64,000 nt of DNA from Acidobacteriota bacterium. GTDB taxonomy: Bacteria; Acidobacteriota; Thermoanaerobaculia; Gp7-AA8. Every line of letters starts with the position of its first letter. Within the stretch, counting starts at the first letter, position 1. The notes below the pieces were generated by a model, which searched no databases, was not told the origin of the DNA, and was given only the letters and a program-made list of their open reading frames with translations. The DNA lies in NCBI GenBank assembly GCA_021325515.1, contig JAJPHC010000030.1, forward strand, positions 78,976 to 142,975, written 5' to 3'. The translations under genes and the position numbers were made by a program. Positions 9,970 through 50,016 of the stretch are shown piece after piece.

Positions 9970-10105
9970 GAGCGCCCGTTTGGGGACGCAGCTCGCCGCC
10001 TGCCATTCCCGAACGTTCGCGGGAGCTCGACCGATGACGACGCTCCGCGGAGTCCCGGCCATTCGGACTTACTGCCCCTGACGAAGTAGGGTCAGCGGCA
10101 GCAGC

Positions 10106-10792: not shown

Positions 10793-12090
10793 TACGCCTC
10801 CTGTGCCCGGCGGGCCTCCAGGTATGCCTCGAGAGGTGACCCGGTCGTCAGGGTCATCAACAGGTTCACAGCGAAGAGCGTGACCGCGGTCATTTCGATG
10901 ATCGCAGAAAGTGCGAGCGCGCTCCACGCATGCTCCGAGATGTGCTGATACGCGAGGATCTGTCCGCCAACACGCAGCGTGCAGCCGATGTTGATCAGTC
11001 CCAGCACGACTGCCATGAGTCTCGTGCTCCAGAGCCGCCGCACGTTGAAGAACGCCGGCAGCACGCGCGGCCCGATCGTGAACACCGCCGCCGCGAAGAA
11101 TCCGACCGTGAGCGCGTGGCGCGACGCGCCCGCGTAGCCATTCGGCGCCGGCACGGACGCGGCGACGATCGCCAGCGCGCCTGCGACCACCGACCAGAGA
11201 AACGCGATGCGGATGAACAGCGGCGTCGATTCATGCACACCGCGCAGCTTCGGCTCGCGCTCGCTCCTCTCGAATGTGCGCAGCGCGATTCCAAACATCA
11301 ACGCCGCAATCGTCAGAATGACCGCACCGGCGATCAGCGAGAAGAACGACGTCGCGACGCCCGCGAAGAGTATCGCCATCACCGGGATCAGCATCGTCTT
11401 GCGCGTTTTCTTCAAGCCGAGCAGCGGCGGAAGCCATCGCGAGGCAAAGCCCCAGATGAACGGCACGACGAAGCCCCACGTGATCAGCACCAGATAGCGC
11501 TGGTTGAATGCGGCCGGGAATCGGGGCGCACTGCCGGTGAGCGCGACTCGCAGCGATTCCGCGGCGTTAACGGCGATTGCAACGACCATCGACGCGCCGG
11601 CGCCGCTGATCAGCAGCACCGACTTCCGCCACGAGTCATCCAACGCACGCGGCCGCGCGAGATAGACAGAGACGGCGAAGATGCACACCGCGATCAGCTC
11701 CAGCGCGCCCGACAACGGCAGCAGCACGCGCCATTGCCACGGCCACGTACCGATCGCCCAGCGCATCGCGACGCCCGCGGTCCACAACGGGTACGTCGTC
11801 CATGCCGCGAGGTGCGAGAACGGACTGAGACGCAGGCGCGGAATCGTGTAGTAGCCGATGCCGAGGATGAAGGTGCCGAGCCAGCCGAAAAGCTGGGCAT
11901 GACCGTGGGCCTGCACCCACGCCGCGTCGGCGGCGGACGAGGTGTGTGCGCTCGCGATCTTCAGCAGGGTCATCACGCCGGCGAACGTGCCCGGCAGCAG
12001 CATGAACGCGAGCCCGGTCGCGATGTAGACCTTGAGCATCCGCGAAAGATCAGGATCGTGCGGCTGGCTGAGAGAACGGCAACGCGGCAT
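10792..12090 (-). CDS. nnrS: NnrS-family haem-copper membrane protein (NO-stress associated); start may be the internal ATG at 12039
   Basis: About 12 predicted TM helices with conserved His residues (HGHAQLFGW). It is co-located with a Crp/Fnr regulator and the nar operon. The family assignment comes from memory of the NnrS architecture. Confidence 0.45.
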   Translation of the reverse strand: MPRCRSLSQPHDPDLSRMLKVYIATGLAFMLLPGTFAGVMTLLKIASAHTSSAADAAWVQAHGHAQLFGWLGTFILGIGYYTIPRLRLSPFSHLAAWTTYPLWTAGVAMRWAIGTWPWQWRVLLPLSGALELIAVCIFAVSVYLARPRALDDSWRKSVLLISGAGASMVVAIAVNAAESLRVALTGSAPRFPAAFNQRYLVLITWGFVVPFIWGFASRWLPPLLGLKKTRKTMLIPVMAILFAGVATSFFSLIAGAVILTIAALMFGIALRTFERSEREPKLRGVHESTPLFIRIAFLWSVVAGALAIVAASVPAPNGYAGASRHALTVGFFAAAVFTIGPRVLPAFFNVRRLWSTRLMAVVLGLINIGCTLRVGGQILAYQHISEHAWSALALSAIIEMTAVTLFAVNLLMTLTTGSPLEAYLEARRAQEA

Positions 12091-12137
12091 CGGGCGGGCC
12101 TCCGATGCGTAACGTACCGCGCGCCGTGCAGCGGCGG

Positions 12138-12153
12138 CATGACGGATGTCATG
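12138..12153. promoter_or_regulatory. Candidate Crp/Fnr-family operator: perfect palindrome CATGAC-ggat-GTCATG in the divergent nnrS / cytochrome c-nar promoter region
   Basis: The sequence TGAC-N4-GTCA resembles the FNR/Dnr TTGAT-N4-ATCAA box geometry. It lies ~130 nt upstream of the cytochrome c start and ~50-100 nt upstream of nnrS. Confidence 0.3.
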
Positions 12154-12282
12154 TCGAAGCGGGCAGCAGCAGGATCGGCCACGTTGCTTCCCGCGAAGCC
12201 CTGCCTCTCGCCCGCTTCGTCACATCCCCCCCGGGACCAAAGTCATCGCACCTTGCGTAGCCGATGTCTTCCAATGCGTCAC

Positions 12283-13134
12283 ATGATGTCCAACACCTAT
12301 CGACGCGCTCTCCTGGTGGCGGCGACGGTGACTCTCATCACCGCATCGGCCCGCGCCGCCGACGAAGCGGCCACGTACTTCCGGCAGAACTGCATGAGCT
12401 GCCACACGATCGGAGGCGGCCGTCTCGTCGGCCCTGATCTCAAGGACGTCACGCAACGGCGCGACAAAGGCTGGCTGCAGAAATTCGTCGCCAATCCGAA
12501 GTCGTATCTCGACGGCGGCGATCCCTACGTCGCGAAACTGAAAGAAGACGCACGGGGCGCCGTGATGCCGAACATCGCCGGCATCGACGAAGCCCGAGCG
12601 CTCGCGCTGCTGGAGATGATCGAGCGCGAGTCGAAGCTTCCCAAATCGCAATTCGCCGGTCTCAATATCGGAGACCAGCCATTTACTCCATCCGACATCG
12701 CAAATGGACGGGCCATCATCCTCGGCGAAAAGCATCTGGCCAACGGCGGCCCGGCCTGCGTCTCCTGCCACTCCGTCGACAACATCTCCATCCTCGGCGG
12801 CGGCAAGCTCGCGCCCGATCTGACGAAAGTCTTCGAACGAATGCGCGGCCGGAAGAATCTCGCGTCATGGCTGCAGGCGCCGGCGACGCCGACCATGCGC
12901 CCTCTCTTCGCCAATCAGTCGATGACCAACGACGAGATCACGCAACTCGTCGCTTATCTCGAAACGACCGCACGCAAGCCGCAACAGACCGGCGACACCG
13001 CAACGCTCTCCTTCTTCTTCCTCGGCCTTGGCGGCTGTGTGCTGGGCTTCATCGGCGCCGACACCGTCTGGCGCAAGCGGCTGCGCGGCGTTCGCAAACC
13101 ACTCATTGAAGAAGCTCGGCGAGGTGACCGATGA
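12283..13134 (+). CDS. Dihaem c-type cytochrome with signal peptide and C-terminal TM anchor
   Basis: Two CXXCH motifs (CMSCH, CVSCH) are present. The N-terminus is a signal peptide ([25 protein letters not shown]). There is a C-terminal hydrophobic stretch. Its stop overlaps the narG start (ATGA). The upstream part of the 734-aa track ORF is spurious. Confidence 0.75.
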
Positions 13135-16100
13135 GCATCGGCTGGATTCAGGACGAAGCAACGCCCAACGGGCGCTCCTGGGAAGAGTTCTATAGAAACC
13201 GCTGGCAGCACGACAAGGTCGTCCGCTCGACCCACGGCGTGAATTGCACCGGCTCCTGCACGTGGCAGATCTACGTCAAGAACGGGATCGTCACCTGGGA
13301 GATGCAGGGACTCGATTATCCCGCGCTCGAGAACGGCCTCCCGCCTTATGAGCCGCGCGGCTGCCAGCGCGGCATCTCCTACTCCTGGTACCTCTATTCG
13401 CCATTGCGCGTGAAGTATCCGTACATGCGCGGCGCACTGATCGATCTCTGGAAGAGCGCGCGCAGTGCACACGAGGATCCCGTCGAGGCCTGGGCCTCCA
13501 TCATGGACGACCCCGAAAAGCGCCGGCGCTTTCAGAAAGCGCGCGGCAAAGGGGGATTCCGCCGCGCGTCGTGGGACGACGCGCTGGAATTGATGGCCGC
13601 CGCCAATCTGCACACGATCAGGAAATACGGGCCGGACCGCATCAATGGCTTCTCGCCGATTCCGGCGATGTCGATGATCAGCTACGCATCCGGCGCCCGG
13701 CTGATGCAGCTCATGGGCGGCGTCTCACTGTCGTTCTATGACTGGTATTGCGATCTCCCCAATGCGTCGCCGGAAGTATGGGGCGAACAGACGGACGTTC
13801 AGGAGTCGGCTGACTGGTACAACGCCAAGATGCTCGCCGTCATGGGGTCGAACCTCAACATGACGCGCACGCCCGATTGTCATTTTGCAGCCGAGGCGCG
13901 GCACAACGGTTCGAAGATGTGGGTCTTCGCGCCCGATTTCAATCAGGTCGCGAAATACGCAGACGAGTGGGCCGCCATCAATGCCGGACAGGATGGCGCG
14001 TGGTGGATGGCGGTCAATCACGTCATTCTCAAGGAAGCGCATTACGAGAAACAGACACCGTACTTCATCGATTACGCGAAGAAGTACAGCGACAGTCCTT
14101 ATCTCGTCGAGCTGATCCCAAGTGCAGGACAGGCGTTCAAGGCCGGCCGCCTCCTCCGCGCCAATCGCCTCAAGGCCTACCAGAACGTCGAGCACGGCGA
14201 CTGGAAGTTCCTCATGTGGGACGACACATCCGATCAGCCGAAGATGCCGATGGGCTCCGCGGGCTTTCGCTGGGGGCGTGAAAAGGGCAAGTGGAACCTG
14301 CTGCTCGAGGATGGTCTCTATGGCGACAAGATCGAGCCGGCGCTCACCTTCCTCGGCCGCGGCGACGTCGCGGTCAACGTCGAGTTCGACGATTTCGGCG
14401 CCGATCGCCGCTCGTTCCGCGGCGTGCCCGCGCGGTCCGTCGAGCTTGCGGACGGCTCGCGAGTGCTCGTCGCCACTGTTTATGACCTGCTCATGGCGCA
14501 ATACGGCGTCGACCGCGGTCTGGGCGGCGATTATGCGGGCTCTTATGACGACGACGGGCCGTTCACTCCCGCATGGCAGGAGAAATACACCGGCCTCTCG
14601 CGCGACATGGTCATCAAGTTCGCGCGCGAATGGGCGCGCACGGCGGAACTGACACAGGGGAAGTGCACCGTCATCATCGGCGCCGGCATCAATCACTGGT
14701 ACCACGCCAATCTGATGTACCGCGCGGCGATCCACGCGCTGATCTTCTGCGGCTGCATCGGCGTCAATGGCGGCGGACTCGCCCACTATGTCGGCCAGGA
14801 GAAGCTCGCGCCCGGCGAGCCGTGGGGCGCAGTCGCCTTCGGCAAGGACTGGATCCCCTCCTCGCGCCAACAGAACGCGCCGAGCTGGCACTACGTCCAT
14901 TCCGACCAGTGGCGTTATGAGCGATCGTTCACGGAATACCACCGTCTGCCGCGCGAGGCGAACGACTCGACGAAAGATCACACGATCGATCATCAGGTTC
15001 GCGCCGTCCGGCGTGGCTGGCTCCCCTTCTATCCACAGTTCAACAAGAGCTCGATCGAGATCGTGGCCGAGGCCGAGAAGGCGGGCTGCAGAAGCGATCA
15101 GGAGATCATTGATTACGTCGTCGCGCGCCTGAAATCGAGCGAATTGAAATTCGCGGTGGAAGATCCCGACGCGGAAGAGAACTGGCCGCGCGTTTTCTAC
15201 ATCTGGCGCGGTAACGCACTCATGTCGTCGGCCAAGGGCCACGAATATTTCCTCAAGCATTATCTCGGCACGCACAACAACTCCGTCTCACAGGATCTCG
15301 CCGGAGATTCCGTGAAGGAAGTCGTGTGGCGGGAGCAGGCACCGGAAGGAAAGATGGACCTCATCGTCGATCTCAACTTCCGCATGGACACCTCGGCGCT
15401 CTACTCCGACATCGTTCTGCCCGCCGCCACCTGGTACGAGAAGGCCGACATCAACTCGACCGACATGCACAGCTTCATTCATCCGCTGTCGAAGGCGGTG
15501 CCGCCGTGCTGGGAGTCGAAGAGCGACTGGCAGATCTTCCGCGCGCTGGCAAAGAAGTTCTCGGAGCTTGCGGCGAAGCACTTCCAGGCACCGGTCCGCG
15601 ATCTCGTCGCGACGCCTCTGGCACACGACAGCGCCGCGGAGATCGCACAGAGCGAACCACGTGACTGGTTCCGCGGCGAGTGCGAGGCGATTCCCGGCAA
15701 GACCATGCCCGGCCTCAAGATCGTCACGCGCGATTTTCGCGATGTCTACAAGCAGTACATCTCCTTCGGACCAGAAGCGCGCAAGAACGGACTCGGCGCA
15801 CATGGGACGCACTATGCGATCGACGACTTCTATGACGCCATGCTCACCGAGAAACCGACGGTGTGCTGGAATCACGAAGGCTCGTCGAAGCCCTGCTTCG
15901 CAATCAATGGCACGTCGGGCTGCAAGCGCTATCCCTCGCTCCGTGAAGATGAACATGCCGTCGATTTGATCCTCCACCTCGCCACAGTGACGAACGGCGA
16001 GCTCGCCTGGCGCAGCTACAAGGAGATGGAAGCCAAGGTCGGCCTTCCGCTGACGCACCTCGTCGAGAAACAGCGCGGCGTCAGGGTCTCTTACGCGGAT

Positions 16101-16805
16101 CTGCAATCCAGGCCGCATCGCTTCGTGAATTCGCCGATGTGGTCCGGCCTCATCGAAAACGGCCGCGTCTATTCGCCGTTCACCTACAACGTCGAATGCC
16201 TCGTGCCGTGGCGCACGCTCACCGGCCGCCAGCACCTCTATCTCGATCATCCGACCTACATCGAGTTCGGCGAGCATCTGCCCACATACAAGCCCAAGCC
16301 CCTCCCTGCCGAATATGCCGACCTCCGCTTCGCGGAGCAGAACACGAACGCGAAGATGCTCAATTACCTGACGCCCCACGGCAAGTGGCACATCCACTCG
16401 ACGTACGGCGACAACCAGCGCATGACGACGCTGTCGCGCGGCGTCGAGCCGTTCTGGATGAACGACAGCGATGCCGACGAGCTGGGCATTCAGGACAACG
16501 ACTGGGTGGAAGTCTTCAATGACCACGGCGTCGTGGTGACGAGAGCCGCGGTGTCGGCGCGCATCCCGCGCGGCATCTGCATCCAGTACCACTCGCCGGA
16601 ACGGACGTACTCCGTGCCCAAGTCGCCGCTGCGCGGCAACAAGCGCGCCGGCGGCCACAACTCGCTGACCAGAACACGCCTCAAGCCAAACCTGATGATC
16701 GGCGGCTACGGCCAGTTCACCTTCCACTTCAACTACTGGGGACCGACAGGCTGTAACCGCGACACACATGTACTGGTGAGGAAACTGCCCGAATTGAATT
16801 GGTGA
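13131..16805 (+). CDS. narG: Respiratory nitrate reductase alpha subunit, copy 2 (full length)
   Basis: The N-terminus carries the H/C-x3-C-x3-C Fe-S motif ([12 protein letters not shown]). The protein is 1224 aa with Mo-bisMGD family blocks along its full length. No twin-arginine signal is present. Confidence 0.95.
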
Positions 16806-16823
16806 TGAAAGGGCATGAGACAG

Positions 16824-16903
16824 ATAGGACCTATGGGACCTATGGGACCTATAGGGAGCCACCCATAGGTCCTATAGGTCCCATAAGGTCCCATAAGTCC
16901 CAT
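16824..16903. repeat. 80-bp imperfect palindrome built from tandem octamers (GGACCTAT x3 ... ATAGGTCC-like x4) in the narG2-narH2 spacer
   Basis: Read directly: ataggacctatgggacctatgggacctataggga gccacc cataggtcctataggtcccataaggtcccataagtcccat. It is absent from operon copy 1, where narG and narH overlap. Confidence 0.6.
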
Positions 16904-16925
16904 CGCTGCCACGAGGAGCCAATTA

Positions 16926-18415
16926 TGGATGTCCGATCCCAAATCTCCATGGTCTTCCACCTCGATAAATGCATCGGGTGCCACACCTGCTCCATTGCGT
17001 GCAAGAACATCTGGACCGACCGCAAAGGCACGGAGTACATGTGGTGGAACAACGTCGAGACCAAGCCGGGCACCGGCTATCCGACGCGCTGGGAAGATCA
17101 GGAAAAGTACAGCGGCGGCTGGGAGCTGAAAGGCGGGCGGCTGGAGCTGCGCTCGACGTCGAAGTCGAAGATCGTCTTCAACATCTTTCACAACCCGCAC
17201 ATGCCGTCCATGGACGACTACTACGAGCCATGGACCTATGACTACGGCAATCTCTTCAATGCGCCGGAGGGATGCGACCAGCCGACGGCGAAACCGATCT
17301 CGCTGGTCAACGGCAAGTACCTCGACATCGACGCCGGGCCGAACTGGGACGACGATCTCGGCGGCTCACGCGTCTATGCAGCGAACGATCCCAATCTGGA
17401 AGGGATGAATGAAGAGCAGCGCGCGCAGCTCGCGGCGGTCGAGCGGCTCGTGATGTTCTATTTCCCGCGCATCTGCAATCACTGCCTCAATCCGGCGTGC
17501 GTGGCCGCCTGCCCCTCGGGGGCGATGTACAAGCGCGGCGAGGACGGCATCGTGCTCGTCGATCAGAAGCGCTGCCGTGCCTGGCGCGCCTGTGTGGCCG
17601 CCTGCCCCTACAAGAAAGTCTTCTATAACTGGCAGACAGGCAAGTCGGAAAAGTGCATCCTCTGCTTCCCGCGGCTGGAGACCGGACAGGCGCCGGCGTG
17701 CTTCCACTCCTGCGTCGGCCGCATCCGCTACCTCGGCATCCTGCTCTATGACGCGGAACGGATCGAGGAGATCGCGAAGAGCTCCGACGAGAATCTGATC
17801 GACGCCCATCGCTCGATCATTCTCGATCCGTACGATCCGCAGGTCATCGAAGGCGCGCGTGCCAATGGAATCCACGATTCCGTCATCGAGGCCGCACAGA
17901 AGTCGCCGGTCTATCTCTGGGTGAAGCTCTGGAAGCTCGCCCTGCCTCCGCACATAGAGTTCCGCACACTGCCGATGCTCTTCTACGTTCCGCCGATGTC
18001 TCCGGTGATGGCGCAGAAGGATGGTGACATCATCTCCCACACCAGCGACGATCTCTTCCACGACATCGATCAGGCACGCCTGCCGATGCAGTACCTGGCC
18101 AGGCTGTTCGGCGCCGGGCACGACGGCAAGGTTCGCTACGCACTGCGCAAGCAGAAGGCCGTCCGCGCATACCGGCGCTGGCTAACCGTCGGCGACATCA
18201 GCGAGGCCACGGTCGACCGCATGCTCCGCGAGGCGGATACGACTCGCGACGAAGTCGAGGCCATCTACAGGCTAACGTCTCTCTGCACCTTCGAAGACCG
18301 CTTCGTGATCCCGCCGATGTACCGCGAAGAAGCGATCGAGATGCTGCAGGATCCGATGGAGGCGAAGCAGTCCGCCGGCTTCGGCTTCATGGAAGGCCCG
18401 TCGAGGGGGTTGTAA
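16926..18415 (+). CDS. narH: Respiratory nitrate reductase beta subunit, copy 2
   Basis: N-terminus MDVRSQISMVFHLDKCIGCHTCSIACKN with a GAGGAG RBS 7 nt upstream. The N-terminal extension in the track ORF (YGTYGTY...PIGPIGPI) is a translation of the palindrome, not protein. Confidence 0.92.
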
Positions 18416-18864
18416 TGAACGCAGGATCGCTCATCCGCCTCTCGTCGCTGCTTTCCTATCCGCACGGGCAGCTCGTCCGTCGTCCCGATGATTGCGGCCC
18501 CATCTCCGACTTCTTCGACGAGATCGAGTCCGTCGAGCCGTCCGGTCTCGAAGAGCTCTATACGACGACGTTCGATCTCAATCCGGTGGCGACGCTCGAG
18601 GTCGGGTGGCACCTGTGGGGCGAGCAATACGAGCGGGGGCGATTCCTCGCCGATTTGCGCGGGCTGCAGGCCGAGCACGGCATTCCCAATGACGTCGAGC
18701 TGCCTGACCACCTGACCGTGCTGCTGCCGACCCTCGCTGCCGCCGGCACCCCGGAGCTCCGCGCGCAGTGCGCCAAAGCCATCGAAAAAATCCTGCAGCC
18801 GCTCGAGGAGCATGGCAACCCCTATCGCCATCTGCTTCGCGCGGCAATGGAGGCGGCACAATGA
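18415..18864 (+). CDS. narJ: Nitrate reductase assembly chaperone, copy 2
   Basis: ATG overlaps the narH stop (TAATG). The protein is 149 aa with TTFDLNP and NPYRHL motifs. Confidence 0.85.
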   Translation: MNAGSLIRLSSLLSYPHGQLVRRPDDCGPISDFFDEIESVEPSGLEELYTTTFDLNPVATLEVGWHLWGEQYERGRFLADLRGLQAEHGIPNDVELPDHLTVLLPTLAAAGTPELRAQCAKAIEKILQPLEEHGNPYRHLLRAAMEAAQ

Positions 18865-19562
18865 CGACCTTCGCGAATTACCTCGACACCGTACTGTTCG
18901 CCGTCTTCCCCTATGTGGCGATGGTGCTGTTCCTGGTTGGGACCATCCACCGGTATCGCAGCGAATCGTTCACCTACTCCAGCCTTTCGTCCCAGCTCCT
19001 GGAGAACAAACAGCACTTCTGGGCCGTCGTGCCGTTTCACTACGGCATCATTACGGTACTGACGGGGCACATCGTCGCCTTTCTCATTCCGCGGCAGTTC
19101 CTGCTCTTCAACAGCAAGCCGCTGCGGCTCTACATTCTCGAAGTCTCGGCGTTGATCTTCGGCATCACTACGCTCGTCTCGCTGCTGGCGATCATCGCCC
19201 GCCGCTTCACAGACCCGCGGGTACGCGTGGTCACGACGAAGGCCGACTGGTTCCTTTATGGGATGCTGCTCCTGCAGGTCTTCTGCGGCGTCTATGTGGC
19301 CATCTTCTACCGCTGGGGCTCGGCGTGGTTCGCGGCATCGGCATCGCCTTATCTCTGGTCCCTCCTCAAGCTTCGGCCGGAAATCGCCGTCATTGCCGCC
19401 ATGCCCTTCGCAGTGAAGCTGCACATCGTCAATGCCTGGCTCGTGATTGCCTTCTTCCCGTTCACGCGCCTGGTTCACATCCTCGTCGTTCCGAATCAGT
19501 ACCTCTTCAGAAAACGGCAGGTCGTCCGGTGGTACCGCCGGCCGCAAATGGCGCGGAGCTGA
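18861..19562 (+). CDS. narI: Respiratory nitrate reductase gamma subunit, copy 2
   Basis: ATG overlaps the narJ stop. The protein is hydrophobic (MTTFANYLDTVLFAVFPYVAMVLFLVGTIHRYRS) and colinear with copy 1. Confidence 0.85.
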   Translation: MTTFANYLDTVLFAVFPYVAMVLFLVGTIHRYRSESFTYSSLSSQLLENKQHFWAVVPFHYGIITVLTGHIVAFLIPRQFLLFNSKPLRLYILEVSALIFGITTLVSLLAIIARRFTDPRVRVVTTKADWFLYGMLLLQVFCGVYVAIFYRWGSAWFAASASPYLWSLLKLRPEIAVIAAMPFAVKLHIVNAWLVIAFFPFTRLVHILVVPNQYLFRKRQVVRWYRRPQMARS

Positions 19563-19566
19563 TGCG

Positions 19567-20187
19567 ATGAATGGCCGGATCCTCACGATCATCCTGTCGG
19601 TGGCCGTGGTCTTCTCGGCCATTGCACTCGTGCCGCGCCTCATCGCCATGCGGCTGCCCGGCGATCACTCCGGCTTCGAACCGGAGCAGCCGATCGCCTT
19701 CTCGCACCGTCTTCACGCCGGTGAGCTGAACATCAACTGCCAATACTGTCACGCGACGGCACAGCGGAGCCGCTATGCGGGGATTCCTTCCGCATCGGCC
19801 TGCATGAACTGCCACAAGTTCATCACCTCGCGCCGCGCCGGCATCCGCGCCGAAGAAGAGCAGGCCAAAAAAGAGCACCGCAAGCCGAATCAGGTCATCG
19901 CACCCGAGCTCAACAAGCTTTATCTCGCGATCAAGACCTCGACACCTGTGCGCTGGAACCGCATTCATCAGGTTCCCGACTTCGTCTACTTCGACCACCG
20001 GCCGCACATCGCCGCGGGGCTCGATTGCCAGCGCTGCCACGGCCCGGTGGAGACGATGGAGCGTGTGCGCCAGGTCGAAACGCTCAACATGGGCTTCTGC
20101 GTCAATTGTCATCGCGGACGCGATGGGACGACGCTCAATGGACATCCGGTCAAGGCCACGAGCGATTGCAGCGCGTGCCACTTCTAA
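19567..20187 (+). CDS. actA: Pentahaem c-type cytochrome, alternative complex III subunit ActA-like
   Basis: Five CXXCH motifs (CQYCH, CMNCH, CQRCH, CVNCH, CSACH). An N-terminal TM or signal segment is present. The gene starts 4 nt after the narI stop. Confidence 0.75.
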   Translation: MNGRILTIILSVAVVFSAIALVPRLIAMRLPGDHSGFEPEQPIAFSHRLHAGELNINCQYCHATAQRSRYAGIPSASACMNCHKFITSRRAGIRAEEEQAKKEHRKPNQVIAPELNKLYLAIKTSTPVRWNRIHQVPDFVYFDHRPHIAAGLDCQRCHGPVETMERVRQVETLNMGFCVNCHRGRDGTTLNGHPVKATSDCSACHF

Positions 20188-20192
20188 ACGCC

Positions 20193-22976
20193 ATGAAGAC
20201 TTATTACAGAAGCATCGAAGAGCTCGAGACGCCGGTTGCGCCACGCGATGCGAATGACGACGGCCGCAATGAGGTCGATCGCCGCGACTTCCTGAAGCTC
20301 GCCGGATTCTCCGTCGCCGCTGTTGCTGCAACGGCTTGTCAGAGATCCTCCGTAGAGAAGGCGATTCCGTATCTCACTGCGCCGGAGGAGATCGTCCCCG
20401 GCCGCGCCTACTACGTTGCATCGACGTGCCACGGCTGTCCCGCGCGTTGCGGAATTCTCGTCAAGTGCCGCGACGGCCGGCCGATCAAGATCGAAGGGAA
20501 TCCCGATCATCCGCTCTCCCGCGGAGGCCTCTGCGCCATCGGCCAGGCCACGGTTCTCGGTCTCTATGATTCGCTGCGCCTTTCCGGCCCGATGCTCGGC
20601 GGCAAACCTTCGGACTGGCAGCAGGTCGATGCACTCATCGCACAGAAGCTCTCTTCTGCACGCCGGGTGCGCGTGCTGACATCGACGATTCCCAGCCCTG
20701 CCACCAAACGGTCGATCGATGCCTTCCTGGCCCGCTTCGCCGACGGAAAGCATGTCGTCTACGACACTCTCTCCTGCAGCGCGATTGCAGACGCGCACGA
20801 GGAAACGCACGGCGTCCGCGCGGTTCCGCACTATCGCTTCGACAAAGCCTCCGTCGTTCTCAGCCTCGACGCCGACTTTCTCGGCACATGGCTCTCGCCG
20901 GTCGAATTCACGAAACAATGGAGCGCGCGCCGGCCGTGGCATATCCAGCTCGAGCCTCGCATGTCGCTCACCGGATCCAACGCCAGCCAGCGGCTGCGGA
21001 TGCATCCGGCGGAGGCGGGCCTCGTGCTCGCCCATCTCGCAGCCGCGTTCGGGGCACCGTTTTCGAACCTGCCCCCGCTGCCCTTCAAGCAGGTCGTCTT
21101 CGATCGGATCGTCGAGCGGCTGCGCGCGGCGAAAGGAGAGTCGCTCGTCGTCGCCGGCGGCAATGACATCGAGGTGCAGCGGCTTGTTAACTTCGTCAAT
21201 GAGGCGCTGGGCAACTATGGAGCGGCCGTCGAGATCGGAGCTCCCTCGCTGCAGAGGCAGGGAAACGAGCGGGATCTGGCGGCGCTCGCCGATGCGGACG
21301 CGCTCTTCATCGCCGGCTGCAATCCCGTCTATGACCTGCCGCAGGGCAGCGAGCTCGCAAAGCAGCTTGCGGCGATTCCCCTCGTCGTCTCGTTCGCAAC
21401 GCACGCCGACGAGACGTCGAAGTACGCGCATGCCATCTGTCCCGACCATCATTTCCTCGAGTCGTGGGACGACAACGAGCCTGTGGCCGGCGTCTACTCG
21501 GTGACCCAACCAGCGATTGCACCTCTGCGCAACACGCGCGGAGTCATGGAGAGCTTCGCCACATGGAGCGGAGCACCGGCGAGCGCGTATCAGCAGATCA
21601 AGTCGCAGTTCACCGGCGACTGGGACAAGACCCTGCAGACCGGCGCCGTTGTCCGTGAAGTGCGGACGTCCTCGCCCGCACGTACGAATTTCAAGCCCGA
21701 ATATGGCCCACGAAGTGCGGATGAGACGTCCGCATCCCACTACACCCTTGTCCTCTATCCGGCCGTTGCCATGCTCGACGGCCGCCACGCACACAATGCC
21801 TGGCTTCACGAGCTGCCCGATCCGGTCACAAAGGTCACCTGGGACAATTACGCCTCCGTCTCCCCTGCCACGGCCACGAAGCACGCGCTCAAGGACGGCG
21901 ATATCGTCCGTATCGGCGACGTCGAGCTCCCGGCGTTCGTCCAGCCCGGCCAGCACGACGGCGTCGTCGCCATCGCGATCGGTTACGGTCGCATCGGTAC
22001 CGACCGCTTCGCGAAGAGCGGGCCGAAGTGGCTCCTCGGCCGCACATGGCTGCATCGCGGGGAGACCGTCGGCAAGCGGGTGATCCAACTGGCGAATCAG
22101 CCGGCCGTCACGATCACGAAGACGGGACGGAGCACAGCACTCGCCTCGACGCAGCTTCACAACAAGGCAGAGGGCCGGCCGCTGTTCGGCCCTGAAGAGA
22201 AGAGCACAGCCGGCAATGGACTCTGGCCCGTCAAGAACAAGGGCCAGCATCAGTGGGCAATGGCGATCGATCTCGCCAGATGCACCGGCTGCTCGGCATG
22301 CGTCATCGCCTGCCAGGCCGAGAACAACGTCCCGGTCGTCGGGAAGGACGAAGTCGTGCGCGAGCGCGAGATGCACTGGATCCGCATCGACCGCTATTAC
22401 GCCGGCGAAGGCGATGACCTCGAAACCGTGCATCAGCCGGTCATGTGCATGCATTGTGGCAACGCGCCGTGCGAGACCGTCTGCCCGGTGCTGGCTACAG
22501 TGCATTCATCGGACGGACTCAACCAGCAGGTCTACAACCGCTGCGTCGGAACGCGCTACTGCGCGAACAACTGCCCCTATAAGGCGCGCCGCTTCAACTG
22601 GTTCGACTATCCGCACGACGACCGTTTCGCGAATCTCGTTCTCAATCCCGACGTCACCGTGCGCAGCCGGGGCGTGATGGAGAAGTGCTCGATGTGCGTG
22701 CAGCGCATCGAAGAGGCGCGCATCGAAGCGAAGCAGAAGGGCATCGCGATTCCCGACGGCGCCATTCGAATGGCGTGCGAGCAGTCGTGTGCCGCCGACG
22801 CGATCGTCTTCGGCGATCTCAATGACCCGGCGAGCAGGATCAGCGCCGCGCGCAGGAGCAACCGCCACTTCCGCCTTCTCGAAGAGCTGAACGTGCAGCC
22901 GGCGGTGGGCTATTTGGCTCTCACTTCATCCCGAGCCGAAGGCGAGGGATCAACGACGGCGCCGCGCGAATCATGA
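20193..22976 (+). CDS. actB: Alternative complex III subunit ActB-like: Tat-exported molybdopterin-oxidoreductase-like domain fused to a 4x[4Fe-4S] ferredoxin domain
   Basis: Twin-arginine motif RRDFLKLAGFSVAAVAATA. A CHGCPARCG cluster sits in the N-domain. The C-terminal CTGCSACVIAC...CMHCGNAPCETVCP...CVGTRYCANNCPY is a PsrB/NrfC-like Fe-S domain. Confidence 0.8.
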   Translation: MKTYYRSIEELETPVAPRDANDDGRNEVDRRDFLKLAGFSVAAVAATACQRSSVEKAIPYLTAPEEIVPGRAYYVASTCHGCPARCGILVKCRDGRPIKIEGNPDHPLSRGGLCAIGQATVLGLYDSLRLSGPMLGGKPSDWQQVDALIAQKLSSARRVRVLTSTIPSPATKRSIDAFLARFADGKHVVYDTLSCSAIADAHEETHGVRAVPHYRFDKASVVLSLDADFLGTWLSPVEFTKQWSARRPWHIQLEPRMSLTGSNASQRLRMHPAEAGLVLAHLAAAFGAPFSNLPPLPFKQVVFDRIVERLRAAKGESLVVAGGNDIEVQRLVNFVNEALGNYGAAVEIGAPSLQRQGNERDLAALADADALFIAGCNPVYDLPQGSELAKQLAAIPLVVSFATHADETSKYAHAICPDHHFLESWDDNEPVAGVYSVTQPAIAPLRNTRGVMESFATWSGAPASAYQQIKSQFTGDWDKTLQTGAVVREVRTSSPARTNFKPEYGPRSADETSASHYTLVLYPAVAMLDGRHAHNAWLHELPDPVTKVTWDNYASVSPATATKHALKDGDIVRIGDVELPAFVQPGQHDGVVAIAIGYGRIGTDRFAKSGPKWLLGRTWLHRGETVGKRVIQLANQPAVTITKTGRSTALASTQLHNKAEGRPLFGPEEKSTAGNGLWPVKNKGQHQWAMAIDLARCTGCSACVIACQAENNVPVVGKDEVVREREMHWIRIDRYYAGEGDDLETVHQPVMCMHCGNAPCETVCPVLATVHSSDGLNQQVYNRCVGTRYCANNCPYKARRFNWFDYPHDDRFANLVLNPDVTVRSRGVMEKCSMCVQRIEEARIEAKQKGIAIPDGAIRMACEQSCAADAIVFGDLNDPASRISAARRSNRHFRLLEELNVQPAVGYLALTSSRAEGEGSTTAPRES

Positions 22977-22983
22977 TCGGAGG

Positions 22984-24849
22984 ATGCACGTGACCGCTAC
23001 CACAATCGACTCCAGCGCGGCTGCTCCGTTGATGCCTCACTCCGTTCGGCATGAACTTGTAGAGCCCCTAATCCTCGGCAAAAAATCGGCTGCGGATGTC
23101 ACGAACGACATCTGCGCTCCGCTCGAGCGCCGGGCCACACCGCTCTGGTGGATCGCGTTCCTCGCATCGACGGCATTGATGATCACCGGCCTCATCGCGA
23201 TCGCTTACGAGATCAGCACAGGCATCGGCACATGGGGCCTCAATAAGACCGTCGGATGGGCGTTCGACATCACAAACTTCGTCTTCTGGGTCGGCATCGG
23301 TCATGCCGGCACGCTCATCTCCGCGGTTCTCTTCCTCGTCCGGCAGAAGTGGCGCACCTCGGTGAATCGAAGCGCCGAGGCGATGACGCTGTTCGCGGTG
23401 ATCTGCGCGGCGATCTTCCCGCTCATTCACATGGGCCGCCCGTGGCTCGCATTCTGGGTCTTCCCTTATCCCAATACACGCGGCTCCCTCTGGGTGAACT
23501 TCCGCTCGCCGCTGTTGTGGGACGTCTTCGCAATCAGCGTGTACTTCACGGTGTCCGCGGTGTTCTGGTTCATCGGGCTGATTCCCGATCTCGCGTCGAT
23601 CCGCGACCGTTCGCGAGGTTTGCGCAAAGCGATTTTCGGCGCGCTCTCCTGCGGCTGGAACGGATCGCTGAAGACATGGACGCGCTACGAGAAGATGTAT
23701 CTGCTGCTCGCCGGTCTTGCGACGCCGCTCGTCCTCTCGGTGCATTCAATCGTTAGCTTCGATTTCGCCACGTCGCTGCTTCCGGGCTGGCATGCGACGA
23801 TTTTTCCGCCTTACTTCGTCGCCGGCGCGATCTTTTCCGGAATGGCGATGGTCCTGACGCTGATGCTGATCGCCCGCGCCGTCATGCCCGCCCTGCGCGA
23901 CTACCTGACACACAACCACATCGACGCGATGACCAGGCTCGTCCTGCTCACCTCCGGCTTCGTGGCACTCGCTTACAGCACGGAGTTCTTCACGGCGATG
24001 TACAGCGGCAACCGGTACGAGCGCTATGTCTTCATCAACCGCGCGCTCGGCCCCTTCGCGTGGGGCTACTGGACGATGGTCACCTGCAATGTCGTCATCC
24101 CGCAGCTCTACTGGTTCCGCCGCGTGCGCCGGAATCTCCTCGCCGTCTTCGCCATCTCGATTTTCGTGAACATCGGGATGTGGTTCGAGCGCTTCATCAT
24201 CATCGTCACGTCGCTGCACCGCGACTACCTCCCGTCGAGCTGGGCGAACTATTCGCCGACCATCATCGAGATCCTCACGTTTGCCGGAACATTCGGCCTC
24301 TTCTTCACTGCATTTCTTCTCTTCTGCCGGTTCCTGCCGATGGTCGCCATGGCGGAAGTGAAGGGCGTGCTGCACCGTCCGGAAGAGGCGGAGCTGGCCC
24401 GCGCGGTGCGCGACCTCAAGAGGAACGGCTATGACATCGAGGATGTCCGGACGCCCTATGCGGTGCATGGCCTGGAGAAGGTCGCGGGCATTCCACCGAG
24501 CCGTCTAGGATGGGCGTGCGCGATCGGCGGCTTCAGCGGCGCGGCTCTGATTCTTCTCTTCGAGTCATGGACGTCGGCATCGAGCTGGGCGCTGGATGTC
24601 GGCGGCAAGCCGTTCAACTCGATCCCCGCCTTCATCCCCGTCACCTTCGAGGTCGGCGTTCTCCTCGGCGCCTTCGCGACCGTGCTGGCGTTCTTCGTCC
24701 GCAGCCGCCTCTGGCCCGGCCGCAGGGGCGAGGCGGTCAACGAAGACTTCACGATCGTCGTGCGTGCGCACAATGCCGCGTTCGACCGCAGCGAGGCCGA
24801 GCGGATCACCACGGCCACCCAGACCCTGCTCGTGGTGCAGGAGGACTAA
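22984..24849 (+). CDS. actC-actD: Alternative complex III membrane subunit ActC (NrfD/PsrC family) fused in one ORF to an ActD-like (DUF3341) C-terminal domain
   Basis: An ~450-aa polytopic NrfD-like part is followed, without a stop, by an ~170-aa segment (GYDIEDVRTPYAVHGLEKVAGIPPSRLGWACAIGGFSG...GGKPFNSIPAFIPVTFEVGVLLGAF) that resembles ActD. The start is ATG 22984 or GTG 22990. Confidence 0.75.
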   Translation: MHVTATTIDSSAAAPLMPHSVRHELVEPLILGKKSAADVTNDICAPLERRATPLWWIAFLASTALMITGLIAIAYEISTGIGTWGLNKTVGWAFDITNFVFWVGIGHAGTLISAVLFLVRQKWRTSVNRSAEAMTLFAVICAAIFPLIHMGRPWLAFWVFPYPNTRGSLWVNFRSPLLWDVFAISVYFTVSAVFWFIGLIPDLASIRDRSRGLRKAIFGALSCGWNGSLKTWTRYEKMYLLLAGLATPLVLSVHSIVSFDFATSLLPGWHATIFPPYFVAGAIFSGMAMVLTLMLIARAVMPALRDYLTHNHIDAMTRLVLLTSGFVALAYSTEFFTAMYSGNRYERYVFINRALGPFAWGYWTMVTCNVVIPQLYWFRRVRRNLLAVFAISIFVNIGMWFERFIIIVTSLHRDYLPSSWANYSPTIIEILTFAGTFGLFFTAFLLFCRFLPMVAMAEVKGVLHRPEEAELARAVRDLKRNGYDIEDVRTPYAVHGLEKVAGIPPSRLGWACAIGGFSGAALILLFESWTSASSWALDVGGKPFNSIPAFIPVTFEVGVLLGAFATVLAFFVRSRLWPGRRGEAVNEDFTIVVRAHNAAFDRSEAERITTATQTLLVVQED

Positions 24850-24851
24850 CC

Positions 24852-25421
24852 ATGCGCCGCACCATCATCAATTCACTGCTGCTGGCCGCGACTGCCGCCT
24901 TCCTGTCGCTCAACTGGATTCTTCAGGCCGATCCCAATCAGCGGAATTTCGAGGTCCTGCCCGACATGGCGCACTCGATTCCTTATGACTCGTATGCGTC
25001 GAATCCGAATTTTCGGGATGGCATGACGCTGCGCCTGCCCGTCGCCGGTACTGTGATCCGCGGCATCACGCCTCTGCACTATGCTGCGACGCCCGCCGAT
25101 GCGGAGCGGGCCGGGCGCGTGCTCGTCAATCCTTATCCGGCGACGGATGCCGCGGCACGCACGCGCGGCGCCGCCATCTACAACACCTATTGCGAGATCT
25201 GCCACGGCGTCAGCGGCAAGGGCGACGGAATCGTCGCGCAGAGAGGCTTCCCCACACCCCCGTCACTGCTCGCGCCCAATGCCCTCGGACTGCCCGACGG
25301 GCGCATCTTTCACATCATCACTTACGGCCAGAAGAACATGCCTTCTTACGCATCGCAGATCGATCGCGATGACCGCTGGAAAGCGATTCTCTACGTGCGC
25401 TCGCTGCAGAGAGGCAAATGA
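24852..25421 (+). CDS. actE: Monohaem cytochrome c, ActE-like
   Basis: A single CEICHG motif. The N-terminus is a signal or TM segment. A CAGGAGGA RBS lies 6 nt upstream. Confidence 0.7.
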   Translation: MRRTIINSLLLAATAAFLSLNWILQADPNQRNFEVLPDMAHSIPYDSYASNPNFRDGMTLRLPVAGTVIRGITPLHYAATPADAERAGRVLVNPYPATDAAARTRGAAIYNTYCEICHGVSGKGDGIVAQRGFPTPPSLLAPNALGLPDGRIFHIITYGQKNMPSYASQIDRDDRWKAILYVRSLQRGK

Positions 25422-26470
25422 TGAATTCGCGCATTCTCTTTCCCGTTCTCACACTGATCGCGTTCGCGACAGGAATGGCCGTCACCGGCGCCGTGCTCGC
25501 ACCGGACGATGTGTGGCCGAACGTGCTCGTATCGGGATTGTTCCTGACGGGAATCGGACTCGCCGGCGGATTCGTCGTCGCGGTCCACGATCTCAGCGGC
25601 GCGCACTGGCTGGGGCCGCTGCGCCGCATCGCCTGCTCGTTCACGCGGCTCGTTCTCCCCGGCGCGGCGGTCGTGCTCGTCGCGATCCTCTTCGGAGGCT
25701 CGCATCTCTATCCCGCATTTCATGAGCACCTGCCGGGCTTCAAAGGCGTGTGGCTCGGACGGACCTTCTTCACACTGCGCGCATTCGGATACGCAGCCGC
25801 GTGGGCCGTGGCGCTCCGTCTGCTGCACAAGAAGCGCGCTTCCGCGTTCTATATCGTCGTCTTCGGATTCACGGTGTGGCTGTCGGGCGTTGACTGGGTC
25901 ATGTCGCTCGAGCCCCACTGGTCGAGCACGATCTTCGGCGTCTATCACTTCGCCGGACTCGTGACGGCGGGTCTCGCCGCGATCATCATCGTCGCCGTCC
26001 ATCGCTCACGGACTGATTCCGCGATCACCTCAGACCATCTGCACGATCTGGCGAAGCTGCTCTTCGCGTTCAGCACATTCTGGATGTACATCTGGTTCAG
26101 CCAGAGCATGTTGATCTGGTACGGCAACATGCACGAAGAGACCGGCTATTACCTGCTGCGCGCCTATGGCAACTGGGGCGTGCTGTTCTGGACGACCGTC
26201 GCTCTGATGTGGGTGATCCCGTTCTTCGTCCTGCTGCCGGAGACGACGAAACGCAATCGGACGATTCTCACGCGCATCGCCATCGTCATCCTCGTAGGGC
26301 ACTGGCTGGATCTGTATGTGTCGGTCGTGCCGGCAATCTCACCCGACGCCCGATTGACGGGATGGGAGCTCGCGCTGGCACTGGGTACGTTTGCCGCCGT
26401 CGGCCTCGCGGCAACACGGCGGGAGCGCGACCTGGAGGAAGCCGTCGTCGTGCTGGACCTCGCACGTTGA
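25418..26470 (+). CDS. actF: Alternative complex III membrane subunit ActF-like (NrfD-like polytopic protein)
   Basis: About 10 TM helices. The ATG overlaps the actE stop. It is the last gene of the co-directional array. Confidence 0.7.
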   Translation: MMNSRILFPVLTLIAFATGMAVTGAVLAPDDVWPNVLVSGLFLTGIGLAGGFVVAVHDLSGAHWLGPLRRIACSFTRLVLPGAAVVLVAILFGGSHLYPAFHEHLPGFKGVWLGRTFFTLRAFGYAAAWAVALRLLHKKRASAFYIVVFGFTVWLSGVDWVMSLEPHWSSTIFGVYHFAGLVTAGLAAIIIVAVHRSRTDSAITSDHLHDLAKLLFAFSTFWMYIWFSQSMLIWYGNMHEETGYYLLRAYGNWGVLFWTTVALMWVIPFFVLLPETTKRNRTILTRIAIVILVGHWLDLYVSVVPAISPDARLTGWELALALGTFAAVGLAATRRERDLEEAVVVLDLAR

Positions 26471-26503
26471 GAGTGGAGAGCGGACGCCTCGTCCGCACAT
26501 GGA

Positions 26504-27277
26504 TCACGCGATGCAGACGCGGTTTCTGCCTGCGCGCTTGGCTTGATAGAGCTGCGCATCCGCTCGCTCAACCAGCGACTGCACCGTGTCGCCTTTGCGC
26601 AGCGATGTGGCGCCGAGGCTGATGGTGGCGCGCATCTGGTGATCGTCGAACTCGAAGATCGCGCCGTCGATCATCGCCCGGATTCTCTCGCAGAATCCCG
26701 CCGCTTCGTCGAGGCCAGTCTCCGGCAGCACGACCGCGAACTCCTCGCCGCCGTAGCGCGAGAAGAGCTCGTCGCGCCGCACCGACGCGGCCACATATTG
26801 CGCGATGCCCACCAGCATGCGGTCTCCTGCAAGGTGGCCGAACGAGTCGTTGATCCGCTTGAAGTGGTCGATGTCGAACATCACCAGCGACAACGGCCGT
26901 TCGTGGCGCACCGCGCGCGCGATCTCGCGCTCGAGAAAATCGAGCAGATGCCGCTTGTTCGCCGCCTGCGTCAATCCGTCGGTGATCGCGAGGTGGTAGA
27001 TCTCCTCGTGGTACATCGCCTCGACATTTCCGCCGGCGATGAACTTCAGCACCGAGCCGCCGCAGCGGATCAGATCCCCGTTCTCCAGCCGCCGCGGCCC
27101 TTCGATCGGGGCATCGTTGACGAATGTGCCATTCGTGCTGCCGAGATCCTCGATGCGATAGACGTTGCCGGCGAGAAAAATCCGCGCGTTCGCGGCGTGC
27201 ATCGCGCTCTGGTTCATGGTCGCGTCCTTTCTCGCGTTCCACGCGATGTTCGACGCATCCGAGTTGCTGCGTGGCAC
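26504..27277 (-). CDS. FHA-domain / GGDEF diguanylate cyclase
   Basis: The N-terminus has an FHA core (YRIEDLGSTNGTFVND...GDLIRCG). The C-terminus has GGDEF signatures (RYGGEEFAVVL, DHFKRINDSFGH). Confidence 0.75.
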   Translation of the reverse strand: MPRSNSDASNIAWNARKDATMNQSAMHAANARIFLAGNVYRIEDLGSTNGTFVNDAPIEGPRRLENGDLIRCGGSVLKFIAGGNVEAMYHEEIYHLAITDGLTQAANKRHLLDFLEREIARAVRHERPLSLVMFDIDHFKRINDSFGHLAGDRMLVGIAQYVAASVRRDELFSRYGGEEFAVVLPETGLDEAAGFCERIRAMIDGAIFEFDDHQMRATISLGATSLRKGDTVQSLVERADAQLYQAKRAGRNRVCIA

Positions 27278-27479
27278 GTGGATGATGGAACGTTGTCATG
27301 TTTCGCCGCGGCGATGGGTGCAGATCACGACGTGCCTCGAGCAAACCATGCTGCCGCTCGAGTCGCTCTTTCCGGCAGCCACGGGATGCGTGATCGATGT
27401 CTTCGATCCGCTGGTAACGACGGAACCGGCACTCGCGAGGGCGCGTCAAAGCACTCGAGCTGGACGTCGACCATCAACG

Positions 27480-27778
27480 CCGTCGAAGATGGCTCCGCAG
27501 ACCTCGTGCTGATCATCCTGTCCGCGCACGAGATCCGCGATCGGCGCGAGCGCGAGCGCCTCTTTCACGAGAGCGCGAGAATGCTCGCGGACTCGGGGCG
27601 GATCGTTCTCGTCGAGCATCTGCGTGATGTCGCCGCGGCGCTCGCATTTGGACCGGGGCTGTTTCACTTTTACCCGCGCAGCATCTGGCTGAAGCAGGTT
27701 GCGTCGGCGCGGCTCGCGATTCGCGATGAGCTCGCGATCACGCCGTTCGTGCGGGTGTTCGTTCTGGAGCGAGTGTGA
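27480..27778 (+). pseudogene. C-terminal remnant of a class I SAM-dependent methyltransferase (no N-terminal SAM-binding motif upstream)
   Basis: Only the methyltransferase post-motif region is recognisable (DLVLIILSAHEIRD...RIVLVEH...FHFY). The upstream in-frame sequence lacks a GxGxG motif. Confidence 0.3.
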
Positions 27779-49192: not shown

Positions 49193-49206
49193 GGAACGAC
49201 GAGCTC

Positions 49207-49947: not shown

Positions 49948-50016
49948 GATGCGCTACCGTATCGCTCGGGGCGCCGTCAGGAATTCCCGCGCGACCCTTC
50001 GTGTAGACTACGCGAA

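Follow-up and report, generated by a model that had tools for sequence, protein, structure and literature searches.

A 64,000-nucleotide stretch of contig JAJPHC010000030.1 from a soil-dwelling Acidobacteriota bacterium (GenBank assembly GCA_021325515.1), called the window below, carries ten consecutive + strand genes at positions 12283–26470: narC, narG, narH, narJ, narI, actA, actB, an actC-actD fusion, actE and actF. They encode a periplasmic dihaem cytochrome c (NarC), a nitrate reductase (Nar) and a complete alternative complex III (ACIII). We lean towards reading this array as one co-inherited nitrate-respiration module, most likely expressed as a single transcript, in which a NarC-type Nar is combined with a dedicated ACIII that would reduce NarC. 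The ten genes are the following.

12283–13134, + strand: narC, dihaem cytochrome c of 283 amino acids (aa), periplasmic, with a C-terminal membrane anchor
13131–16805, + strand: narG, catalytic subunit with molybdenum bis-pyranopterin guanine dinucleotide (Mo-bisPGD), cytoplasm-facing
16925–18415, + strand: narH, iron-sulfur subunit (TIGR01660)
18415–18864, + strand: narJ, assembly chaperone of 149 aa (Pfam Nitrate_red_del, PF02613)
18861–19562, + strand: narI, dihaem b membrane subunit (TIGR00351)
19567–20187, + strand: actA, pentahaem cytochrome c with an N-terminal anchor
20193–22976, + strand: actB, exported by the twin-arginine translocation (Tat) pathway, with a MopB-like domain and a 4Fe-4S domain
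22984–24849, + strand: actC-actD fusion, NrfD-like quinol-site subunit joined to ActD
24852–25421, + strand: actE, monohaem cytochrome c, electron exit of ACIII
25418–26470, + strand: actF, second NrfD-like membrane subunit, short form of 350 aa

The ten-gene array and its products

The identities of the genes and the way they are packed were observed directly. A first-pass annotation of the window had described a cytochrome c gene followed by narGHJI and a set of ACIII genes, and this content was confirmed by family models, by matches to solved structures and by reading the junctions in the sequence. Three junctions (narC/narG, narJ/narI and actE/actF) are ATGA overlaps and a fourth, narH/narJ, is a TAATG with an overlap of 1 nucleotide (nt). 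Short gaps separate narI from actA (4 nt), actA from actB (5 nt), actB from actC (7 nt, with GGAGG inside) and the actC-actD fusion from actE (2 nt), and a 119-nt spacer with a strong hairpin lies between narG and narH. The earlier description of overlaps or short gaps everywhere save at narG/narH thus holds, but its upper limit of 6 nt does not, as the actB/actC gap measures 7 nt. A terminator between narI and actA, which the same annotation had considered as a break in the array, finds no room there because the gap is only 4 nt. When positions 10000–27500 were scanned, no Rfam family reached its gathering score and intrinsic-terminator matches were no commoner than in shuffled sequence; a sigma-70 promoter scan was no better than with shuffles.

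NarG, NarH and NarI pass the NCBIfam equivalog models TIGR01580 (1521 bits, cut-off 1084), TIGR01660 (655 bits, cut-off 524) and TIGR00351 (127.5 bits, cut-off 105.55), respectively. NarJ scores 26.5 bits with Pfam PF02613, above the threshold of 22.2, and 45.9 bits with TIGR00684, under the cut-off of 59.35; the position of its gene is kept in all relatives compared. NarG has no Tat motif, as no RR pair is found in its first 70 residues. Its FS0 motif HGVNCTGSC (H-x3-C-x3-C) is present and aligns to NarG of Escherichia coli; the protein begins about 14 aa later than its E. coli counterpart, with an N-terminus of the same length as that of Thermus NarG. NarI aligns to E. coli NarI, and its haem b ligands H56, H66, H187 and H205 are invariant in 33–34 sequences. 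The column of E. coli K86 holds an invariant Arg in NarC-type NarI, in a loop where the alignment is uncertain and for which the E. coli NarI sequence used was approximate.

In the cytochrome c that opens the array, a signal-like N-terminus is combined with two CxxCH motifs and, near the C-terminus, a single transmembrane (TM) segment at residues 240–258. Its best matches among plasmid records are c-type cytochromes encoded directly 5′ of narG on Thermus thermophilus megaplasmids. Identity to Thermus NarC amounts to 31% over 69% of the query by tblastn and to 28% over the full-length alignment, in which both haem motifs, a Met-Pro motif and the anchor are preserved. On sequence grounds, the cytochrome of the array is a homologue of T. 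thermophilus NarC, the fourth nitrate reductase subunit. A cytoplasm-facing Nar that bears a cytochrome c is therefore not new in itself, being already known from Thermus, where NarC was described as the fourth subunit of such an enzyme (PMC7694296). Genetics and two-hybrid assays have indicated that Thermus NarC binds NarI and is needed for NarG maturation, and it has been proposed to feed nitrite and nitric oxide (NO) reductases while the bc complex is repressed (PMC7694296, PMC10609526). Its role in electron transfer has been called not well defined (PMC7694296).

The two haem domains of NarC differ in their relationships. The first is a distinctive cytochrome c subtype whose top match among solved structures is the cytochrome c domain of Pseudomonas putida PP3183 (2l4d). 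Ranks 2, 3 and 5 of the five best matches are the extra N-terminal cytochrome c domain of Flavobacterium johnsoniae ActA (6btm_A), a Rhodothermus marinus cytochrome c (3cp5) and the cytochrome c domain in subunit II of the R. marinus caa3 oxidase (1w2l). These three are ACIII-associated proteins, and their resemblance to NarC may be taken as supporting a pairing of NarC with ACIII. The second domain resembles the dihaem protein QcrC, which bridges complexes III and IV in actinobacterial supercomplexes. The NarC family comprises 312 clusters at E ≤ 1e-30 among 1.84 billion representatives. Some longer relatives, of 390–635 aa, have the NarC-like part at the C-terminus (P0121, P0124, P0128, P0137 and P0236; P0095, P0098 and P0112), so extra N-terminal domains have been fused to it in some lineages.

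Each Act protein has its counterpart among the chains of the four solved ACIII structures (6BTM, 6F0K, 6LOD and 8K9E), and the subunit order ActA–F is complete and the same as in those complexes. ActA scores 152 bits against 6btm_A and also matches ActA of the three other structures; its sequence shows five CxxCH motifs, with a TM segment spanning residues 5–23. ActB reaches 546 bits against 6btm_B and 544 bits against 6f0k_B, with a Tat motif RRDFL at residue 30. In the fusion protein, which is matched by both the NrfD and the ActD models of Pfam, residues 25–464 correspond to 6btm_C (610 bits) and residues 470–586 to 6btm_D (76 bits for ActD). ActE, with a single CxxCH motif, scores 90 bits against 6f0k_E and 79.5 bits against 6btm_E. 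ActF matches 6f0k_F (120 bits) and 6btm_F (101 bits) over its C-terminal two thirds only and has no Pfam match; its 350 aa compare with 411–464 aa in the solved complexes. No terminal oxidase gene was found in the 64-kb window, nor downstream of actF in the relatives sampled. Genes of this kind typically adjoin those of a respiratory ACIII, although they do not strictly define one.

Conservation of the linkage between nar and act genes

One genome per species was scanned with a NarC alignment. A NarC relative was encoded in 534 stretches of these species-representative genomes, and the best 80 loci were retained. The proteins of the window were then compared with the fetched loci (L numbers), counting only those with narI in range. 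By their names, the 80 loci come from six classes or orders of Acidobacteriota and from Planctomycetota, Bacteroidota/Ignavibacteria, Gemmatimonadota, Myxococcota and other groups, and the window groups with metagenome-assembled genomes (MAGs) of Thermoanaerobaculia. In every locus with sequence at that place, narG is the next gene after narC. Downstream of narI, actA (and actB where the sequence allows) was found on the same strand in 50 of the 55 loci that extend to narI. Among the five exceptions, four break off within two narK genes and are uninformative, hence the linkage holds in 50 of 51 informative loci. The sole informative exception is L029, where the 3.6 kb that follow narI contain neither narK nor actA.

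The distance between narI and actA varies among the 50 linked loci: the two genes are directly adjacent in 22, separated by a 1.3-kb insert in 15 and by an insert of 1.7–3.3 kb in 13. Seven inserts were sampled, and they consist of one or two genes for NarK-type transporters of the major facilitator superfamily (MFS). In L021 and L060, narK is followed by a second open reading frame for a putative, membrane-transporter-like protein. The window contains no narK-type nitrate/nitrite transporter gene, and the Thermoanaerobaculia clade has lost narK from the position between narI and actA. In L003/L009, two MFS genes lie about 6–8 kb upstream of narC. The fusion of ActC to ActD is a minority state, seen in three of 31 nar-linked relatives (L113, L134 and L157) and in the window and the P0036 contig; elsewhere ActD is encoded by a separate gene.

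The exact cytochrome also lies on an independent contig, and further independent contigs carry two relatives that are 77% and 55% identical to it. The contigs of these two relatives show the same narC-narGHJI-actA-actB-actC order, and the contig with the exact match (L001) ends inside narG. The linkage was also approached from the other end of the array. A search of metagenomes with ActF gave 565 relatives, and narI and/or narK was present upstream of actA in 17 of the 18 ActF loci with enough upstream sequence. The association is two-way: nar operons of the NarC type are nearly always accompanied by this ACIII, and the ACIII clade with short ActF is nearly always linked to nar.

Moreover, the pairwise distances of NarC, NarG, NarH, NarI, ActA and ActB across 31 loci correlate with one another (r = 0.75–0.90), and none of 2000 permutations of a Mantel test reached the observed correlation. 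These correlated distances indicate that the nar and act halves diverged together and were not joined repeatedly. Like conservation itself, this co-divergence is a direct observation, and the module is ancient and co-inherited. The first-pass annotation had raised the concern that the gene order might be an isolated accident, which the survey dispels: the order recurs in several phyla, in almost all informative loci whether these were reached through NarC or through ActF.

The same observations bear on the idea that the nar and act genes stand together by chance, or through an assembly chimera, without functional meaning. Metagenome assemblies can be chimeric, and this general caveat is all that speaks for the idea. 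Against it stand the recurrence of this order in several phyla, across dozens of independent assemblies, and the co-divergence of the nar with the act genes. An assembly artefact is ruled out by identical junctions in the independent assemblies L004, L006, L008 and L011. We consequently give chance or chimerism practically no weight.

Upstream region, spacer and neighbouring genes

The following features surround the array or lie within its spacer.

1–4981, + strand: second, plain narGHJI operon, with narG (cut by the window start) to 2405, narH 2399–3886, narJ about 3.9 kb–4332 and narI 4247–4981
10106–10792, − strand: Crp/Fnr-family regulator of 228 aa, DnrT-like, without an N-terminal Cys cluster (Pfam cNMP_binding and HTH_Crp_2; gene call on L001)
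10792–12090, − strand: nnrS, haem/copper membrane protein of NO-responsive regulons, divergent from narC (Pfam NnrS, 29.5 bits, cut-off 28)
12139–12152: distal palindromic box ATGACGGATGTCAT, an exact match to ATGAC-N4-GTCAT, conserved at the equivalent place in L006, L009 and L011; candidate Crp/Fnr-family site
12233–12246: proximal box GGGACCAAAGTCAT, about 37–50 nt upstream of the narC ATG
16815–16912: palindrome of 9-nt GGGACCTAT repeats followed by inverted copies, in the narG/narH spacer
26480–26496: GC-rich hairpin GCGGACG-CCT-CGTCCGC, between the convergent actF and GGDEF genes
26504–27277, − strand: gene for an FHA-GGDEF protein, 3′ of actF and convergent with it

The divergent Crp/Fnr gene and nnrS were both found upstream of narC, as the first-pass annotation had it. 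The Crp/Fnr protein is 41% identical to the product of the Crp/Fnr gene divergently upstream of Thermus narC, and the nnrS-crp pair is also present upstream of narC in L006, L008, L009 and L011. The region between nnrS and narC would probably drive expression of the array through this DnrT-like regulator, acting at two candidate ATGAC-N4-GTCAT boxes. The distal box is an exact match; the proximal box GGGACCAAAGTCAT has one mismatch to the 12-nt core TGAC-N4-GTCA and two to the 14-nt ATGAC-N4-GTCAT. In L006, L007, L009 and L011, ATGACCAAAGTCAT or ATGACTTTAGTCAT is located 40–91 nt upstream of narC. The ATGAC-N4-GTCAT box is confined to Thermoanaerobaculia relatives and a few other lineages (13 of 77 loci). 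The FNR consensus TTGAT-N4-ATCAA was also tried and rejected, since the stretch between nnrS and narC contains no site at ≤2 mismatches and the sites counted over the whole window do not outnumber those in shuffles.

Elsewhere in the window, one-mismatch copies of ATGAC-N4-GTCAT, ATGGCGGCGGTCAT (46348–46361) and ATGGCAGTGGTCAT (46427–46440), are found just upstream of a DUF3011 gene (46458–47534), which on the basis of these boxes may belong to the same regulon as narC. The narC ATG has no visible Shine-Dalgarno sequence within 12233–12283, and the proximal box is only about 37–50 nt away; relatives such as L006 do carry AGGAGG before narC. The narC transcript may have a very short leader or be leaderless, or translation may truly start at 12274 (MRHMM...).

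The spacer between narG and narH, which the first-pass annotation had singled out for a structured palindrome, was folded into a hairpin of −68 kcal/mol (z = −7.35). The palindrome is real and structured, but it is not a conserved signal of the operon; it is a lineage-specific insert. The GGGACCTAT palindrome occurs as a single copy in the window, it has no T-run and it is not called by the terminator scan. Most relatives have a spacer of 9–24 nt, and unrelated structured inserts occupy the same place in L012, L046, L055, L060, L070 and L071. A role as a conserved regulatory element is ruled out by the short spacers in relatives together with these unrelated inserts. We read the palindrome, from its sequence and position, as a putative insert resembling repetitive extragenic palindromes (REP-like) in a permissive spacer that appears to be a recurrent landing site.

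At the other end of the array, the hairpin at 26480–26496 is a candidate for the end of the transcript, judging by its position and sequence; it is not called by the terminator scan because it has no T-run. Thirteen relatives were sampled for what follows actF, and in about half of them, as in the window, the next gene runs on the opposite strand. Other genes near the module in relatives encode NnrS (some with DUF1858), ScdA/hemerythrin, Rrf2 and a NorB-cytochrome-c-like protein.

The second narGHJI operon lies 7.3 kb upstream of narC and has no ACIII after it. As judged by pairwise identities, which are not a tree, NarG of the array is closer to Thermus NarG (61%) than to its local paralogue (57%), and the same applies to NarI (43% versus 38%). 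The close relatives L006 and L008 have no second narGHJI operon at the equivalent place. The window also encodes a second cyclic-di-GMP protein of 1265 aa (38294–42091, − strand) with a seven-TM region and PAS, GGDEF and EAL domains. At 49129–57147, B12-binding, SPASM-domain and further radical SAM genes adjoin methyltransferase and glycosyltransferase genes in a cluster unrelated to the nar-act array.

Proposed electron routes, known systems and significance

In textbook bacterial NarGHI, electrons come straight from quinol and complex III is bypassed, and the partners known for ACIII are oxygen reductases or photosynthetic chains. The favoured reading joins the two in the following way. The first five genes encode a Thermus-type four-subunit nitrate reductase, with anchored periplasmic dihaem NarC, cytoplasm-facing NarGHI and NarJ for assembly. 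ACIII would oxidise (mena)quinol at ActC, and electrons would pass through ActB, ActA and ActE to the c haems of NarC, which is the only candidate within the module for a c-type cytochrome partner of the ACIII exit haem. NarC would thereby play the part that the anchored cytochrome c domain of a caa3/aa3 oxidase plays in oxidase-linked ACIII. From NarC, electrons could follow either of two routes, one through the b haems of NarI to NarH/NarG and nitrate, the other to N-oxide reductases of the periplasm whose genes lie elsewhere, an exit that was also proposed for NarC of Thermus. Co-transcription, the transfer from ACIII to NarC and the fate of the electrons beyond NarC are inferences. A stricter version, in which NarC-Nar and ACIII form a supercomplex operating in series (quinol, ACIII, NarC c haems, NarI b haems, NarH/NarG), is in our judgement rather unlikely, though worth keeping in mind. 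A Nar-ACIII supercomplex and a cytochrome-c-to-nitrate pathway had both been suggested by the first-pass annotation.

Several points weigh against a dedicated pairing of ACIII and NarC. Thermus NarC works without any ACIII, so by analogy NarC would not require one. NarI keeps the haem ligands and a basic residue at the K86 column, and direct quinol oxidation by Nar therefore probably persists, with two quinol entry points probably coexisting. As Nar can probably take quinol directly, ACIII may be dispensable for nitrate reduction as such, and it would be an additional, not an obligatory, electron entry if NarI oxidises quinol itself. In relatives narK genes intervene, so narI and actA need not be coupled directly in translation. 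There may also be an internal promoter inside narI. Correlated distances can arise from plain vertical descent of neighbouring genes. The structural comparisons are also of limited reach. The AlphaFold model of NarC is moderately confident (pLDDT 72, pTM 0.49), and a Foldseek search of the PDB with it gave no match at E ≤ 0.001. The best Foldseek matches were 2l4d, the R. marinus cytochrome c and, weakly, actinobacterial QcrC; they are supportive only, and similarity among class I cytochrome c domains is generic.

A rival reading is an arrangement of co-regulated but electrically separate branches. NarGHI would then take quinol directly, NarC would serve mainly in the assembly or maturation of Nar, as in Thermus, and ACIII would simply be the quinol:cytochrome c oxidoreductase expressed under anaerobic conditions, supplying nitrite, NO and N2O reductases from other loci by way of soluble cytochromes; the linkage would reflect shared regulation and joint horizontal transfer, with no direct transfer from ACIII to NarC. 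The haem ligands and the basic quinol-site residue of NarI agree with this arrangement, as does the need for NarC in NarG maturation in Thermus (PMC7694296, PMC10609526) and the fact that electron donation to Nar bypasses complex III in characterised bacterial chains (PMC3509893). The recurrence of NO-stress genes (nnrS, ScdA/hemerythrin and Rrf2) near the module also fits a wider N-oxide regulon. However, separate branches would lead one to expect linkage to nir, nor or nos genes, and no such gene turned up in the 64-kb window, nor after actF in the sampled relatives. The module has no gene for a soluble cytochrome c, and the near-exclusive two-way association between this ACIII clade and NarC-type nar operons is stronger than co-regulation alone needs. 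We regard separate branches as a serious alternative, yet an unlikely one.

The direction of electron flow could also be reversed, as in a nitrite oxidoreductase (NXR) of the Nitrobacter type. Nitrite would be oxidised in the cytoplasm, a cytochrome c oxidase would receive the electrons by way of NarI and NarC, and ACIII would run backwards, reducing quinone for reverse electron flow. According to a review of Thermus nitrate respiration, a closely similar cluster that includes a NarC homologue functions as NXR in Nitrobacter hamburgensis (PMC7694296), catalytic direction is not fixed by sequence alone, and with a second plain narGHJI operon present the two enzymes could differ in role. On the other hand, narG passes the narG equivalog model, and the first 150 residues of NarG score 210 bits against E. 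coli NarG versus 29.5 bits, a weak match, against the periplasmic-type NXR of Kuenenia. The DnrT-like regulator and nnrS, with ScdA/hemerythrin and Rrf2 in relatives, have the look of anaerobic NO stress, and the window contains no oxidase or carbon-fixation genes. The carriers are named as Acidobacteriota, Planctomycetota and Bacteroidota, lineages known mainly as heterotrophs. Reversal of this kind, which the first-pass annotation had listed among its options, is very improbable and the least likely of the proposed electron routes. Compared by description, the module shares with the Nitrobacter-type NXR cluster, which has a cytochrome c upstream, a cytoplasm-facing NarG-like enzyme with NarI-like and NarC-like partners (PMC7694296); the latter differs in its oxidative direction, its chemolithoautotrophic host and the lack of any reported ACIII linkage.

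The preferred reading, in which ACIII reduces NarC, can be set against other described systems. As in the T. thermophilus narCGHJI(KT) operon (NCE element), a gene for an anchored dihaem cytochrome c is placed directly 5′ of narG, NarG has a short N-terminus, a Crp-family regulator is divergent upstream and, in most relatives, narK follows narI. In contrast to Thermus, where no ACIII follows the operon and NarC was proposed to replace the repressed bc complex (PMC7694296), a complete ACIII is attached here, and nnrS stands in place of the Thermus gene for a DnrS-type GAF sensor. With the oxidase-linked ACIII of R. marinus (6F0K) and the ACIII-aa3 supercomplex of F. johnsoniae (6BTM), the array shares six subunits in the same order, and with the solved complexes in general a pentahaem ActA, a Tat-exported ActB, NrfD-like ActC and ActF and a monohaem ActE. 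It differs from them in having nar genes upstream instead of an adjacent terminal oxidase, in the fusion of ActC to ActD and in an ActF that is 60–110 aa shorter. Moreover, ActA lacks the extra cytochrome c domain of its F. johnsoniae counterpart, and the homologous domain is found in NarC instead.

A complex-III-type quinol oxidase encoded with Nar has a precedent in the Rieske/cytochrome b-Nar clusters of haloarchaea, where it was proposed as electron donor (PMC3509893). Those clusters combine a periplasm-facing pNar with Rieske/cytochrome b through a b-type cytochrome, whereas the present module combines a cytoplasm-facing Nar with NarI, the unrelated ACIII and a c-type cytochrome. Closer to our array, Suarez et al. 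(2023) reported 13 instances of Nar genes upstream of a cluster of six genes (5-haem cytochrome / Mo-FeS / NrfD / ActD / ccoP / 'ccoII') in Planctomycetota- and KSB1-affiliated MAGs from a subsea tunnel; in their view it corresponded to none of the complexes described so far, and they suggested a novel nitrite reductase of an NrfAH-like kind (PMC10732223). Judged by its description, this is the same arrangement of nar followed by ACIII, and our survey contains Planctomycetota loci of this kind (L042, L051, L055 and L070). Neither NarC nor a distribution across phyla was reported there. In the literature searched, which covers few subscription journals, we found no other report of a nar-ACIII linkage and no description of NarC in an ACIII context, of its cross-phylum distribution or of its biochemistry in that context. 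The parts are known, and good descriptions exist of both Thermus NarCGHI and ACIII. Their conserved combination has hardly been recognised, if at all, and is uncharacterised.

The span from menaquinol to nitrate leaves room for proton translocation by ACIII on top of the NarI loop. If the series route is true, the 2 H+/2 e− contributed by the NarI redox loop would be supplemented by the protons that ACIII translocates, and a higher-yield nitrate respiration with a cytochrome-c-dependent entry into a cytoplasm-facing Nar would be widespread in soil Acidobacteriota and other phyla. In the conserved narC-narGHJI-(narK)-actABCDEF module, NarC appears to connect nitrate respiration with an enzyme of the complex III type. 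The module offers a concrete candidate partner for NarC and a candidate anaerobic partner for ACIII, and it corrects an interpretation in print that took the same cluster for what might be a novel nitrite reductase (PMC10732223). Its carriers are named as abundant, mostly uncultured lineages (Acidobacteriota, Planctomycetota, Ignavibacteria and Gemmatimonadota). The finding is of interest for bioenergetics and for soil nitrogen cycling, and it could alter how much energy nitrate reduction in soils is estimated to yield.

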